Sequence record: MN850637.1
Length of the DNA stretch: 64,000 bases
Source of the DNA: Escherichia phage warpig
Strand: one strand, 5' to 3'
Below the pieces are notes generated by a model, which saw only the letters and a list, made by a program, of their open reading frames with translations, made no database searches and had not been told where the DNA came from. A program made the translations under genes and the position numbers. Position 1 is the first letter of the stretch; each line of letters begins with the position of its first letter. Positions 6,272 through 38,102 of the stretch are shown here, one piece after another.

Positions 6272-6528
6272 TTTTACTCCCTCTAAAATCATTAACCTCA
6301 TACATTACTGCAAAAAATTATAAAAAGCAAGTTGACAATGTACTTGACAAGGTGTTAATCTTTGCGAAGTGGGTTTTTACTTAAAAGGTTACTTAACAGT
6401 TTAACTATACAGATACTTTAAAACTCTTAAAAGATTATTTAATAGCTTTTAAAAAGCTTTAAAGTATAACGTATAGAATACGTTAAGATAAAAGATTAAA
6501 ACTTAATAGTTACTTAAAAGAGGCTTAC

Positions 6529-6951
6529 ATGCAGAAAATGTTTGTTCACCCAGACATAGCTGACTTTGTTAGAGCTTTGCAGAAGTTGGAAGAACTTGAC
6601 ATTGCTGCTCAGCGGGAATATGCTCACCATCACAGGAGAATGGTTGATATACAACATGAAATAGAGTTGTCTGAAAACTATGAAGATGACTTAAAATGCT
6701 CTGTATTTGAGCATATGAAAGATGTTGCTACAGCGAGACGTAAAGCTAAAGACACAGTTGCTTTACTAGATTCTCTTAAAAAGAGGTTGCAAAGTGGTAC
6801 AGACCTGTGTAATCTAGCGTCACTGATTAACGATGTTGAAACTTCTTGGGATAGGCACTATTATCCACGTTCTGAAAAGACACTTGACTTTTCTTCATCC
6901 GAAAACTTAAAATGTTCTAGAAAGAAACTTAACCAACTGAGAGAGAAATAA
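6529..6951 (+). CDS. hypothetical protein
   Basis: 140-aa ORF, first gene of plus-strand block. Confidence 0.45.
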   Translation: MQKMFVHPDIADFVRALQKLEELDIAAQREYAHHHRRMVDIQHEIELSENYEDDLKCSVFEHMKDVATARRKAKDTVALLDSLKKRLQSGTDLCNLASLINDVETSWDRHYYPRSEKTLDFSSSENLKCSRKKLNQLREK

Positions 6952-7814: not shown

Positions 7815-8558
7815 ATGAGTAATATTATCGCATTTACTGGAAAGGCACGTTCTGGAAAAGACACCTCATGTTCTATTGTGAAGAACATCTTAGAGGATGA
7901 GTATGGCTACAATGTTGCTGTAATGGCCTTTGCAGACAACCTTAAACTATCTGCATCAAAGATATTTGACTTGACTTGGAATGACCTGTGCGGTGAAACT
8001 AAAGAGACTCCACAGGTTTTTGACTTATCATACTCTGAACTGATGTTTAAAGTTACGGAAGCTATGGAGTTCACCTTCAGAGATGAACGTTACCATATGG
8101 ACTTCAAGCTTATGTCAGAGTTAACCGGACGATTAATCATGGAGCTTAAGAAGGTTGCTAAACCGACTCTATTGACACGTCTGGGGTTTAGTAAAAAGTA
8201 TAAATTCTCATCAAGACAAATTCAACAGATTTGGGGTACTGAAGTTGTCCGTAAAGTAATGGGCGACAAGTTCTGGTCTAAAGACCTTGAAAAAAGAATG
8301 GTTAGATTCCATGAAATGTGCTCACTTAGAAACCAATATGGTTTTGTCTTAATCAGTGATTTAAGATTTGACTCTGAAGCTGAATGGCTGAGTAGATTTG
8401 CACACCAAACTATTGAAGTAAAAAGAGACAATGTGGACAAAGTTTCATCACATGTTTCAGAAAATGGGATTTCTACAAAATATGAGCGTGACATTATTCA
8501 TAATAATGGTACTCTTGCAGACCTTGAGAACAAGCTAAGAGCCATCATTAAAGTTTAA
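7815..8558 (+). CDS. deoxynucleoside monophosphate kinase
   Basis: N-terminal P-loop AFTGKARSGKDT closely resembles T4 gp1 dNMP kinase N-terminus as I recall it. Confidence 0.65.
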   Translation: MSNIIAFTGKARSGKDTSCSIVKNILEDEYGYNVAVMAFADNLKLSASKIFDLTWNDLCGETKETPQVFDLSYSELMFKVTEAMEFTFRDERYHMDFKLMSELTGRLIMELKKVAKPTLLTRLGFSKKYKFSSRQIQQIWGTEVVRKVMGDKFWSKDLEKRMVRFHEMCSLRNQYGFVLISDLRFDSEAEWLSRFAHQTIEVKRDNVDKVSSHVSENGISTKYERDIIHNNGTLADLENKLRAIIKV

Positions 8559-35690: not shown

Positions 35691-36476
35691 ATGGGTATTG
35701 TAAAAATCATCAATGGGGATATCTTCTCCGCATTTGATAAAGGTAAGTTTGATATTATTGGTCACGGTTGCAACTGTATGAACTTAATGGGTGCAGGTAT
35801 CGCTGACAAGATTTCTAAACTTTACCCAAAAGCATATGAGACCGATACAGAAGTTTATTTGTATGCAGGTGGCATAGGCCACAAACCCTGTGAAAATTTA
35901 CTAGGTAATTTCTCTGTAGCACGTTTAAAACAAGGCCGTATAGCTAACCTTTACACTCAGCTTAAGACTGGTAAAGATGCCCGATACAGTGCTTTAGAGT
36001 CATCTTTGAAACAGCTTAACAGATACTGTGAAGTCAATCAGTTGAAGAAAGTCGGGTTACCTATGATTGGTGCAGGTATCGGTGGGCTAGACGCTCAAGC
36101 CGTCACAGTTATCATTAATCAGGTGATGAAGAGTGTAGATGTGTATCTGTATGTCTATGAAGGAGAGATGTACCACAAGTTACGCTCAGGTTGGAAGAAC
36201 TACTGTGAACCAGAATACTTTGCAGGTGTAGTAACGTTCACAGACAATACAGTTACCCTCTTCAGACGAAGAAAAGGTAAGATACATCAAAGTAACCCTC
36301 CGGTTGAAAAGATGTCTCTAAGTAACGCTCTAGTTACCCACCTGTCGAAGAGCAATCACAGGATTGCAGTAACATTTGGTAGTGATGCAGACACTTATAT
36401 CTATGCAAGAACTGATGAGGGTATCGAGACAGTTTTCTCTTCGCCAGAAGTTACCTTCTTAGACGCAAAGAACTAA
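35691..36476 (+). CDS. macro-domain protein (ADP-ribose binding/processing)
   Basis: IIGHGCNCMNLMGAGIADKI and GLPMIGAGIGGLD resemble macrodomain Gly-rich ADP-ribose-binding loops. Confidence 0.5.
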   Translation: MGIVKIINGDIFSAFDKGKFDIIGHGCNCMNLMGAGIADKISKLYPKAYETDTEVYLYAGGIGHKPCENLLGNFSVARLKQGRIANLYTQLKTGKDARYSALESSLKQLNRYCEVNQLKKVGLPMIGAGIGGLDAQAVTVIINQVMKSVDVYLYVYEGEMYHKLRSGWKNYCEPEYFAGVVTFTDNTVTLFRRRKGKIHQSNPPVEKMSLSNALVTHLSKSNHRIAVTFGSDADTYIYARTDEGIETVFSSPEVTFLDAKN

Positions 36477-36544
36477 GAAACTCTGTAGAGTATTCACAAT
36501 AAACTAAGCCTTTCTTATCTGGTAAATTTTTCAGGTAAGGAGGG

Positions 36545-36745
36545 CTTTTTCATTTCAGAATTGTGCAGGTATATTTCTATAGAGAAATCTGTAGAGGAAA
36601 TTTTGAACTCCAAAGAGAAAATTCATTTTCAAACTGTGCAGGTAATCTCCAAAGGGTTTTTTCATTTTCAAAACGTGCAGAGAAAAATCAGGTCGGGCAA
36701 GAAAAATCATTTTAGAATTGTGCAGGTAGGTGGGTGCAGGTGGGG
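36545..36745. repeat. four direct copies of TTTTCATTTTCARAAYTGTGCAGGT
   Basis: Copies near 36545, 36617, 36656, 36703; terminal GTGCAGGT doubled in the last copy. Confidence 0.7.
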
Positions 36746-36906
36746 ATGTCGCCATTTCTCACAAGGCTACCACATCTGGAAATAAAAGTCAACAGAAAAA
36801 TTTGTAGCGGATTGAAAAATAATTCTTGATTGTAGTTCTGTTTTGTGGTATTCGCGCGCACCCGTTTCATTACAATTTTTGCAAAAAAATATTTTTAAAA
36901 TTCCTA

Positions 36907-36935
36907 TTGACTCTTTGAGTATGGTTATCTAATAT
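36907..36935 (+). promoter_or_regulatory. sigma70-like promoter
   Basis: TTGACT - 17 bp - TAATAT upstream of first small-gene cassette. Confidence 0.55.
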
Positions 36936-36985: not shown

Positions 36986-37192
36986 ATGCTTTACAGTCGT
37001 GAATTGATGGTTACAACTAACGTTAACACAAAGGTAAAACGTTTTTACATGCAAATTTGTGGCGTATGGTCTAGAATATCAGAAGCTGACTATTGCAACT
37101 ATGTAGAAACGGCTATAAACTCTAATTGCTACCTTACAAGAAATACAAGAAAGTACATAAGACAGACAGCAATTTACTACTACGATAAATAA
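36986..37192 (+). CDS. small early protein
   Basis: 68-aa ORF with conserved RBS AAACTGGAGAATCTAAAAATG. Confidence 0.5.
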   Translation: MLYSRELMVTTNVNTKVKRFYMQICGVWSRISEADYCNYVETAINSNCYLTRNTRKYIRQTAIYYYDK

Positions 37193-37279
37193 AGTACTTT
37201 ACAAGGGGCTTATAGTTCGATAGAGTAAGCCCCAGATAAAGAGCTTTGCTAACTAACCTTAAACTAGGAGAATCTGAAA
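37193..37279 (+). promoter_or_regulatory. leader cassette type A
   Basis: AAGTACTTTACAAGGGGCTTATAGTTCGATAGAGTAAGCCCC: -35-like TTTACA, 17 bp, -10-like TAGAGT inside GGGGCTTA/TAAGCCCC hairpin, then RBS AAACTAGGAGA. Confidence 0.6.
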
Positions 37280-37660
37280 ATGGCATATCGTGCACCTAAA
37301 TTCATCAACAAAGACAACTTTCGCAACGCACTGGAGAAGTCACTTGATGAAAAATTTAACGGTAAATTGATTATTGTTCACGCATTCAATTTTAAGTATG
37401 ATATTAATGGGAATAAAATCAACCATTACACGGCAACCATGATAGATGGTACACTTTCAAGTGAAAAAGCCGTACTGAATGCACTTGCTGGACGCGGTAA
37501 AAACCTGATAAAATGTGATAAGCGACGTTATCAGGGTGGCGCATATGGTTACGATGATGCTGTTTACCATCTTGAAAACATGGGCTATCAAGTAGAAAAA
37601 GCTGGAGTATCACAAATTATCGGGAGTGATGGTTATGTGACAATTTTCAAAATTAACTAA
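37280..37660 (+). CDS. small early protein
   Basis: 126-aa ORF after type A cassette. Confidence 0.5.
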   Translation: MAYRAPKFINKDNFRNALEKSLDEKFNGKLIIVHAFNFKYDINGNKINHYTATMIDGTLSSEKAVLNALAGRGKNLIKCDKRRYQGGAYGYDDAVYHLENMGYQVEKAGVSQIIGSDGYVTIFKIN

Positions 37661-37749
37661 TAAAGTACTTTACAAGGGGCTTATAGTTCGATAGAGTAAG
37701 CCCCAGATAAAGAGCTTTACCACTAAATCCTAAATTGGAGAACTTAAAA
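37661..37749 (+). promoter_or_regulatory. leader cassette type A
   Basis: Near-identical copy of the 37193 element. Confidence 0.6.
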
Positions 37750-38007
37750 ATGGCTATTATCAAAAACGTTGTAATTACTGCAAAGACTCGTGATGACGCT
37801 CGCGTTATGGCTAAAAAGTTATGCGGAAAAGTGGTTGACAACGGAAAACAAACTGCTGTAAGGTGGGGCGTGAAAGCTGATAAGCAACTAACCTTAAAAC
37901 ATAATTCAAACAACCTTTTTAAAGGTGTAAAATCACTCGGTAAAGTGAACGTTTTTACCAAAAAAGGCTATAAAATGCACTTATCACTAACTGGCAATTT
38001 AATCTGA
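37750..38007 (+). CDS. small early protein
   Basis: 85-aa ORF from ATG after RBS GGAGAACTTAAAA (track ORF starts upstream inside cassette). Confidence 0.5.
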   Translation: MAIIKNVVITAKTRDDARVMAKKLCGKVVDNGKQTAVRWGVKADKQLTLKHNSNNLFKGVKSLGKVNVFTKKGYKMHLSLTGNLI

Positions 38008-38102
38008 TAAAGTACTTTACAAGGGGCTTAAAAGTTGATATCTTAAGCCCCAGATAAAGAGCTTTACCACTAAATCAAGTCCTTAAACTAGGAGATTCAA
38101 AA
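38008..38102 (+). promoter_or_regulatory. leader cassette type A (variant hairpin)
   Basis: AAGTACTTTACAAGGGGCTTAAAAGTTGATATCTTAAGCCCC then RBS. Confidence 0.6.

Follow-up and report, generated by a model that had tools for sequence, protein, structure and literature searches.

A conserved array of four direct repeats in Felix O1-like phages as probable protein-binding site with a possible role in replication initiation

The replication origin of phage lambda contains four iterons bound by the O protein, and the iterons of plasmids (P1, F, R6K, pSC101) have a comparable direct-repeat format. In the lytic myovirus T4, the direct repeats of oriE provide an earlier example of an iteron-like origin that is dispensable. 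The primary origin of T7 is located at the boundary between class I and class II genes and involves the promoters phi1.1A/B plus an A/T-rich region. For T5, it has been described that the first-step transfer segment, which makes up 7.9% of the genome, is bounded by a conserved untranslated repeat region with DnaA boxes. Here, we analyzed a stretch of 64,000 nucleotides from Escherichia phage warpig (sequence record MN850637.1; the whole stretch is called the window), in which four direct repeats (36546-36727) are located inside a gene-free gap of 510 bp. The window represents a Felixounavirus (Felix O1-like myophage, subfamily Ounavirinae) and shares 97% identity over the stretch with phages nataliec and JohannRWettstein (Bas63). 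Our data suggest that the four repeats probably form a protein-binding array at the DNA level. Among the roles that such an array might play, we rank an iteron-type site of replication initiation first, as a tentative assignment, and such a site would possibly or even probably be redundant. The repeats are best filed as a cis-acting direct-repeat binding array, the kind of which is known; in the literature searched, we found no description of this instance and neither a transcriptome nor an origin mapping.

Reading of the sequence and a repeat finder (families D1 and D2) revealed four plus strand copies of a bipartite motif, TCATTT-N7-GTGCA (N7, seven variable bases), which is usually followed by GGT. 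The cores start at 36550, 36623, 36662, and 36707, so that the start-to-start distances are 73, 39, and 45 bp. Copy 1 (36546-36570, TTTTTCATTTCAGAATTGTGCAGGT) is composed of TTTTT-CATTT, CAGAATT, GTGCA, and GGT, with TCATTT at 36550-36555 and GTGCA at 36563-36567. Copy 2 (36618-36643, AAAATTCATTTTCAAACTGTGCAGGT) carries the two boxes at 36623-36628 and 36636-36640, again followed by GGT. In copy 3 (36657-36682, TTTTTTCATTTTCAAAACGTGCAGAG), TCATTT at 36662-36667 and GTGCA at 36675-36679 are followed by GAG, not GGT, and in copy 4 (36702-36727, AAAAATCATTTTAGAATTGTGCAGGT) the boxes at 36707-36712 and 36720-36724 precede GGT. The copies can be aligned without gaps (no insertions or deletions) and the seven variable bases are A/T-rich. 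An extra half-site (GTGCAGGT) was found to the right of copy 4 at 36734-36741. The spacer between copies 1 and 2 (36571-36617) involves a degenerate repeat-like stretch with the motif CTGTAGAG at 36585-36596 and then the linker ACTCCAAAGAG. The repeat finder listed here a degenerate D1 copy (36567-36594, 64%) plus families D4 and D6, and alignment indicated that the spacer is partly conserved.

The bipartite motif occurred four times in the window, always on the plus strand and always within the array. First-order Markov simulations gave a mean of 0.105 matches per 64 kb (maximum of 2 in 200 runs), and 0.045 matches were calculated analytically from base composition. Similarly, TGTGCAGGT was present three times when 0.34 occurrences were expected, and every one of them was inside the array. 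An earlier note on this DNA, which was made from the sequence alone, had described four direct repeats of about 25 bp with irregular spacing and a doubled end in the last copy. These statements were borne out by our data: the repeats are real and non-random, the coordinates given are correct, the spacing is irregular, and the doubled end corresponds to the extra half-site. With regard to copies 1 and 4, the consensus given at that time contained a superfluous T, and a literal search with it recovered a single copy. An iteron-type origin would comprise, at one locus, at least three repeats of about 17-25 bp that point in the same direction, and the array has this format.

The array occupies the corresponding position in Felixounavirus, Suspvirus, Mooglevirus, and Kolesnikvirus (Erwinia phages), and every syntenic relative examined in these four genera carried the repeats. 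Thus, the comparison of related genomes that the earlier note had proposed as a check came out in favor of the motif. With the gap alone as query, sensitive blastn searches matched 289 phage records. The alignment with Erwinia phages was limited to positions 36622-36724 of the window, which is the region of the repeats, and a reciprocal search with the Erwinia array agreed. When we compared the 5-kb neighborhood of the window with that of Erwinia phage phiEa104, the repeats were among just nine short stretches with detectable nucleotide similarity. Phage phiEa104 carries four good copies (TTTTTCATTTTCAATTTGTGCATAG and variants) at distances of 37, 37, and 39 bp plus a degenerate copy at the terminator, and four copies each are present in Mordin and Felix O1. 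Copy 1 follows the terminator in all genera. At 30 loci from three genera, the offsets of the copies after the macro stop codon were fixed at either 72/145/184/229 or 70/145/186/231 bp. Copy 4 with its left linker GGTCGGGCAAGAAAAATCATTTT most closely resembles copy 3 of phiEa104, and sequence comparison indicates that the individual copies are orthologous across genera. A natural three-copy variant was observed at two loci (L082, 4340-4560; L194, 7960-8170). Here, the segment upstream of copy 3 is replaced and copy 2 is absent, and copies 3 and 4 are kept. In the terminator of this variant, a different 5' arm still pairs with an altered 3' arm, and the hairpin is again directly followed by a copy (TTTTTCATTTT; TTTTTCATTTTCAATT(C/T)GTGCAGG).

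In the complete Bas63 genome (87.1 kb), the motif was detected at the array locus only. A two-copy pattern scan of viral contigs recovered the motif array in Ounavirinae only, and the other viral hits were unrelated coding repeats; a looser single-copy scan of these contigs gave mostly chance matches. No two-copy array was found in enterobacterial genomes, and non-enteric bacteria yielded unrelated repeats. Two records from other phages, Staphylococcus phage SA1 (GU169904.1, 128687-129190) and Campylobacter phage A132 (MG065664.1, 69894-70398), contain a Felix O1-type intergenic region with 86-95% identity. In these two records, the region probably stems from contamination or mis-assembly.

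Evolutionary constraint was concentrated in the two boxes. For 27 sequences from three genera, 40 of the 44 box columns were invariant, and the corresponding values were 7 of 28 for the variable N7 bases and 55 of 110 for the rest of the array. Among 20 felixounaviruses, only 3 of the 44 core box positions were polymorphic versus 121 of 261 third codon positions of the adjacent macro gene (p=1e-7) and 9 of 28 N7 positions (p=0.008). In the same set, polymorphic sites amounted to 21/110 in the rest of the array, 5/42 in the terminator hairpin, and 35/48 in the segment that follows the array. The array is the most constrained non-coding sequence within the 5-kb neighborhood. The 3' flank of the boxes varies with the lineage: coliphages and phages of Salmonella, Citrobacter, and Shigella carry GGT, and Erwinia phages carry TAG or TAA. 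Since the flank differs between lineages and the boxes are fixed, a co-evolving phage protein would explain this pattern more easily than an invariant host factor.

In several genera, both strands of the array are covered by open reading frames (ORFs), which have been called hypothetical proteins in many records. They exist because the motif lacks stop codons in five of the six frames. In Felix O1, they were annotated as ORF31-34 (original entry), and further calls over the gap are ORF14 of the 2010 Felix O1 genome paper, bas63_0096/0097, Mordin_126, and Fifi318 gp93. ORF14 (8042-8254) is the artefact ORF of the array; in the 2010 paper, the array stretch appears as this ORF, and the repeats listed there (24 bp or longer) are different ones. 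It was positive in reverse transcription PCR (RT-PCR), with a maximum at 25 min like the upstream genes. This result and a weak PHROG match of the minus strand ORF (E=3e-5) might be taken to mean that the plus strand ORF 36561..36785 or the minus strand ORF 36555..36755 is a small protein gene, the internal repeats of which reflect a repetitive peptide. We consider this extremely improbable. Polymorphic sites were distributed over the three codon positions as 23/17/24 in the plus strand ORF and 20/14/20 in the minus strand ORF, which is no third-position excess, versus 33/16/121 in the macro gene, which served as control. Moreover, the spacing of 41 bp in Mooglevirus (Mordin) and of 37 bp in Kolesnikvirus (phiEa104) shifts the frame between successive copies, and spacer blocks are swapped non-conservatively (DFS vs ERG). 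The invariant bases form contiguous boxes of 5-6 nucleotides and not a 3-periodic pattern. Neither the start codon nor the ribosome-binding site of the array ORFs is conserved in relatives, and in variant-A genomes (the window carries "variant B" of the segment after the array) the first ATG is inside copy 4 and lacks a Shine-Dalgarno sequence. The plus strand ORF had no match in Pfam or PHROG, and RefSeq has removed the array ORFs from Felix O1. The earlier note had suspected that ORF 36561..36785 is an artefact of the repeats, and our data agree with this view: we found no conserved protein encoded by it in relatives. For annotation, this means that the hypothetical-protein calls over the gap from ORF14 to gp93 as named above should be corrected as artefacts.

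The RT-PCR product indicates that the array region is represented in RNA at some level; the assay was not strand-specific, and its result fits simple read-through. The motif might therefore act at the RNA level, either in a 3' extension of the macro mRNA that arises by read-through or in a leftward non-coding RNA, and the four copies would then be unstructured protein sites (a sponge) or processing sites. We assign a low probability to this scenario. A leftward RNA would start at a putative minus strand promoter to the right of the array, and such a signal may be present in a second conserved non-coding block (36783-36835, AAAAGTCAACAGAAAAATTTGTAGCGGATTGAAAAATAATTCTTGA), which according to the alignment is kept in Felixounavirus, Suspvirus, and Mooglevirus. 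On its minus strand, this block involves an A/T-rich stretch, TTGACT as -35 element (36792-36787), a spacer of 17 nucleotides, and TGgTAGCCT as -10 element (36769-36764). It is a possible candidate for a leftward promoter reading into the array. The minus strand TTGAC(T/C) about 60 bp to the right of the array is conserved, and at the homologous spot of phiEa104 the promoter scan found a good sigma-70 promoter (TTGACC-18-TATACT, score 10/12). In the window, Felix O1, and Mordin, the leftward promoter was below the scan threshold, and its -10 element is poor in Felixounavirus and Mooglevirus. The terminator hairpin on the left of the array could stop leftward transcripts as well. On the other hand, Rfam searches with the array gave no match above noise. 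RNAalifold analysis of 13 diverse sequences (264 columns) yielded -13.0 kcal/mol for the plus strand with a covariation term of +0.07, and -3.5 kcal/mol for the minus strand with a covariation term of -0.9 kcal/mol, so that the consensus folds are weak. Single-sequence folds were no better than those of shuffled sequences (z=+0.70 for single-stranded DNA; z=-0.81 for RNA including the terminator). With no Rfam match, no covariation, and ordinary folding energies, we rejected a structured RNA or a single-stranded DNA element, and the timing of the RT-PCR product, which equals that of the upstream genes, is compatible with mere read-through.

Several known classes of DNA element were also compared with the repeats. 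The sigma-70 promoter class was rejected, since the motif does not recur elsewhere in the genome and its copies lack consistent hexamers: copy 1 alone gives a weak match (TTTTCA-17-TATATT), and minus strand matches were seen in two phiEa104 copies only. The uniqueness of the motif argues against a promoter or operator class in general. The reverse complement of the repeat, TGCAC-N7-AAATGA, resembles the marbox of MarA, SoxS, and Rob (GCAC-N7-CAAA) in being an asymmetric site, in which a GCAC box is separated from an A-rich box by about one turn of the helix. However, only about 11 of 17 specified positions match (by eye) and the second box is out of register. Likenesses to IHF, CRP, LexA, sigma-54, sigma-E, Chi, P1 parS, and marbox sites, inspected by eye with consensus sequences, did not fit all copies in any case.

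Taken together, the repeats are unique in the genome, conserved, fixed in orientation, and asymmetric, with two boxes in each of four copies; the boxes are constrained, the spacers are free, and signals of coding or folding are lacking. This combination is the signature of a binding array, and on this basis we regard a DNA-level array of protein sites as probable. The centers of the two boxes are about 12.5 bp apart. They would be presented in major grooves that follow each other on about the same face of the helix, and they might be read by one protein with two DNA-reading parts or by a head-to-tail oligomer. Four bound copies could then assemble into a nucleoprotein complex over about 180 bp. 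This complex would be located directly behind the terminator of the long replication and nucleotide-metabolism unit, and the first early promoter would follow about 180 bp further downstream. At this site, beside A/T-rich DNA and a strong promoter and where the terminal block of early genes has its inner limit, it may serve replication initiation.

The earlier note had listed a regulator-binding array, origin-associated iterons, and an injection-related signal as candidate roles; our data give each of them a firmer basis and single out none. We tentatively committed ourselves to an origin role, at a fairly low probability, because of the repeat format (four direct repeats of about 22 bp at one locus), the T7-like position in a genome with the same type of replisome, and the precedent of T4 oriE. 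Like the iterons of lambda, the plasmids, and T4 oriE introduced above, the copies are direct, asymmetric repeats of about 20-25 bp in one orientation. They are confined to a single intergenic locus, near A/T-rich DNA and a promoter, and the constraint is in the repeats rather than in the spacers. Unlike iterons, they are irregularly spaced (in the window 73/39/45 bp, in Erwinia phages 37/37/39 bp), share no sequence similarity with known iterons, have no cognate initiator gene that we found or that is adjacent, and are followed by a GC-rich segment before the A/T-rich DNA begins. The T7 origin resembles the locus in its map position by the early-gene block, in the short direct terminal repeats of the genome, and in the strong promoters and A/T-rich DNA, and both T7 and Felix O1-like phages employ a fused primase-helicase and a family-A polymerase. 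In contrast, the T7 origin lacks iterons and works via transcription by the phage RNA polymerase, whereas Felix O1-like phages encode no RNA polymerase. Moreover, the repeats are located upstream of the promoter and not downstream.

A number of observations weigh against an origin role or against the binding array itself. When 33 distinct proteins and the three artefact ORFs were scanned against Pfam and PHROG, no initiator or binder family came up. The 33 proteins were all predicted products of the early block, those of two genes upstream of the array, and ten hypotheticals of the replication module; most of them are ORFans, so that absence of such a protein is not shown by this result. The only helix-turn-helix protein in these scans was bas63_0035, which is of the Cro/C1 type. 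Proteins of this type usually bind palindromes. The genes of the polymerase and of the primase-helicase are about 30 kb away from the array. A/T-rich blocks are present at 36783-36835 and 36865-36910 (up to 85% A+T in 40-bp windows), but according to the stability profile a GC-rich or variable segment of 50-60 bp separates them from the array. In classical iteron origins, the repeats directly adjoin A/T-rich DNA. Replisomes of the T7 type can start from transcripts without iterons. The GC-skew profile is featureless at the array; in this genome, the direction of transcription dominates the skew. Copy 2 is absent in the natural variant mentioned above (L082, L194). Finally, PhageMaP describes the region of about 46-66 kb in Bas63 as uniformly non-essential, and this span includes the pseudo-genes g96/g97 over the array. 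Since the array falls into a span called non-essential, it is unlikely to be the sole essential origin.

The gap is bordered on the left by a macro-domain ("phosphatase") gene (35691-36476, plus strand; Pfam Macro, E=1.5e-7), which is annotated as phosphatase or macro domain in relatives and is the last gene of a long rightward transcription unit. It is followed by an intrinsic terminator (36506-36552, plus strand), for which the terminator scan predicted a hairpin of 17 pairs (36506-36547) plus a T-run. This hairpin is also present in Felix O1, and the T-run doubles as the 5' part of copy 1. The four copies, a variable segment (36728-36782), and the conserved block described above come next. 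A sigma-70-like promoter (TTGACT-17-TAATAT, 36907-36935, plus strand) then precedes the first early-cassette gene (36986-37192, plus strand), which encodes 68 amino acids (PHROG 5293, E=1e-36). Homologous promoters are present in phiEa104, Mordin, and Felix O1, and the stretch 5' of this promoter is the most A/T-rich and the least stable DNA of the gap. The succession of macro gene, terminator, repeats, promoter, and small genes can be read from the sequence or the annotation of Barry, Bas63, Mordin, phiEa104, Felix O1, and Fifi318, and the placement of the array between the macro-domain gene and the first early promoter in the earlier note proved to be right (Pfam, promoter scan). No homologue of the 68-amino-acid gene was found in the early block of Erwinia phages, and thus the array is not tied to that gene. 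Another short motif, AAWYTGTAGMG, is present at three sites of the gap: ahead of the terminator (36479-36490), between copies 1 and 2 (36585-36596), and in the conserved block (36798-36812).

The segment after copy 4 differs between relatives. Felix O1, Mordin, SUSP2, and phiEa104, like most relatives, carry directly after copy 4 a strongly C-rich, G-poor tract on the plus strand, and in the window, Bas63, and Barry there is an unrelated segment of equal length, which is G-rich at its start (GGTGGGTGCAGGTGGGG) and in the window includes the half-site. The coordinates of the post-array segment are 36728-36782 in the window, 1745-1795 at locus L005, 1705-1745 at L003, and 2150-2175 at L004. There was no support for the idea that the segment arose from the C-rich tract by inversion. 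This tract is a site at which several metagenome contigs break, one of them into a Nextera adapter and one as a chimera with E. coli-like DNA. The ends of IMG/VR contigs in the gap were rejected as possible termini and classified as assembly artefacts (adapter read-through, chimera, breaks in the poly-C tract).

This layout brings up a role in transcription. A protein at the four sites might reinforce or time termination of the long upstream unit and thus act as boundary or roadblock, which either shields the block of early cassettes with its strong promoters or prevents leftward transcription, from the putative minus strand promoter, into the macro gene. The array is located exactly between a strong terminator and the next promoter, every copy is co-oriented with transcription, and the fusion of copy 1 with the T-run of the terminator is seen in all lineages, including the one in which the hairpin sequence has been replaced, with compensating changes. 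The C-rich, G-poor tract that follows the array in most relatives is a potential Rho-loading site on plus strand read-through RNA, which we take to be rut-like. The Felix O1 RT-PCR product is consistent with some read-through or local transcription, and non-essentiality in laboratory hosts would be expected of an insulator. On balance, we consider this boundary function rather unlikely. No regulator is known that would bind there, the sites are 180-360 bp away from the promoter, and the C-rich tract has been replaced in the lineage of the window itself. At least ten other early-cassette promoters lack the motif, so that the repeats are not a general early-gene operator. Furthermore, four deeply conserved asymmetric sites seem to exceed what a simple back-up terminator would need.

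The early cassettes to the right of the promoter have repeated junctions of their own (37186-37290, 37650-37750, 38003-38108, 38613-38713). Each junction involves a terminator hairpin (GGGGCTTA...TAAGCCCC) flanked by CTTTACA and then a ribosome-binding region. Nucleotide similarity to Erwinia phages is limited to few stretches, which include these junctions; in the Felix O1 paper, their counterparts are the listed repeats of 57 bp.

To place the array on the physical map, we used what has been reported on the genome ends. Felix O1-like phages have short direct terminal repeats, which for Felix O1 itself were inferred. For UAB_Phi87, a terminal repeat of 608 bp was determined by Bal31 digestion and run-off sequencing, and for Ro111lw (record MH571750) a direct terminal repeat of 613 bp was reported from PhageTerm. 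In MH571750, we found an exact repeat of 613 bp at both ends, which maps to 43362-43976 of the window and would mark the physical ends there, in a gene-free stretch of 1.7 kb between convergent transcription units. The Bal31-sensitive SpeI fragments of UAB_Phi87 (4322 and 2819 bp) fit the flanking SpeI sites within about 100 bp each and within 35 bp in sum. Hence, the distance from the array is 6.6 kb to the terminal repeat and 7.2-7.4 kb to the right end, which amounts to about 8% of the genome, and the interval up to this end accommodates all of the small promoter-gene-terminator cassettes. With the ends at 43362-43976, we rejected the array as physical terminus or packaging site. Erwinia phages have an equal layout: the array, about 6.7-7 kb of small genes, and a gene-free gap. 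The genome of Fifi318 (PQ051114.1; loci L228/L229), which was announced as starting at a PhageTerm-derived base pair 1, opens after the tRNA cluster and upstream of the terminase operon. This start is not in the gene-free gap 75766-77174, which is the counterpart of the terminal-repeat region of Felixounavirus, and thus the record does not confirm the ends of Kolesnikvirus genomes.

Two other regions of the window attracted our attention. The stretch 42900-44600 around the terminal repeat is packed with YTGTTAR motifs, which are often 10-11 bp apart (e.g., CTTGTTAGCAACTTGTTAGCACCTTGTTAAATCTCTGTTAAG at 43423-43470, with many more up to about 44460). This cluster is a candidate array for the binding of a terminase or of another protein; to our knowledge, a small terminase has not been described for these phages. 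At 6300-6530, where the DNA polymerase gene and the rightward replication unit diverge, the sequence is very A/T-rich and has tandem TTGACA boxes and repeated CTTWAAAG motifs, the latter of which are also found around the terminal repeat. This region coincides with the minimum of the cumulative GC skew of the window.

The map position of the array also resembles that of T5 Repeat Region 3. Both are untranslated repeat regions conserved throughout a phage group, and both are located at the inner boundary of a terminal segment of about 8% that carries the earliest genes. By analogy, the array might be a checkpoint of DNA entry: the right end would enter first and delivery would pause at the four sites once the early block of about 7 kb is inside. 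If this were true, a T5-like first-step transfer would operate in a contractile-tailed subfamily, held by a host- or phage-borne protein that recognizes TCATTT-N7-GTGCA. The conserved layout in Erwinia phages and the size of the T5 first-step segment are consistent with this idea. In addition, every Kolesnikvirus copy (phiEa104, L004 1999-2140; L157; L177) ends with TGTGCATAG or CGTGCATAA, which is one mismatch from TGTGNAWAA, the complement of the DnaA box TT(A/T)TNCACA. Copies from coliphages and Salmonella phages (TGTGCAGGT) lack this resemblance. The copies of the window (TGTGCAGGT or CGTGCAGAG) match the complement at only 5-6 of 9 positions, and the Kolesnikvirus copies alone reach 8 of 9; DnaA boxes were rejected for this reason, since they fit the Erwinia-phage version only. 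The T5 region is also built differently, with about 1.2 kb of nested direct and inverted repeats plus palindromes, whereas the array of Ounavirinae consists of four simple direct repeats. T5 is a siphovirus, whereas Felix O1-like virions are myoviruses with a contractile tail. Moreover, the array is outside the terminal repeat of 613 bp, whereas the T5 signal is inside a repeat of 10 kb, and the mechanism of the injection stop in T5 is itself hypothetical. For Ounavirinae, the literature searched contained no report of a two-step DNA transfer, there is no evidence for it or for the end that enters first in any phage of this subfamily, and the Fifi318 record leaves the Kolesnikvirus part of the comparison unconfirmed. 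We therefore give this entry model very little credence.

Relatives of Felix O1 are classic phages for typing and biocontrol, and Bas63 is becoming a genetic model. In these phages, the array may provide an experimental handle on the replication origin, on the temporal control of transcription, and on DNA entry.

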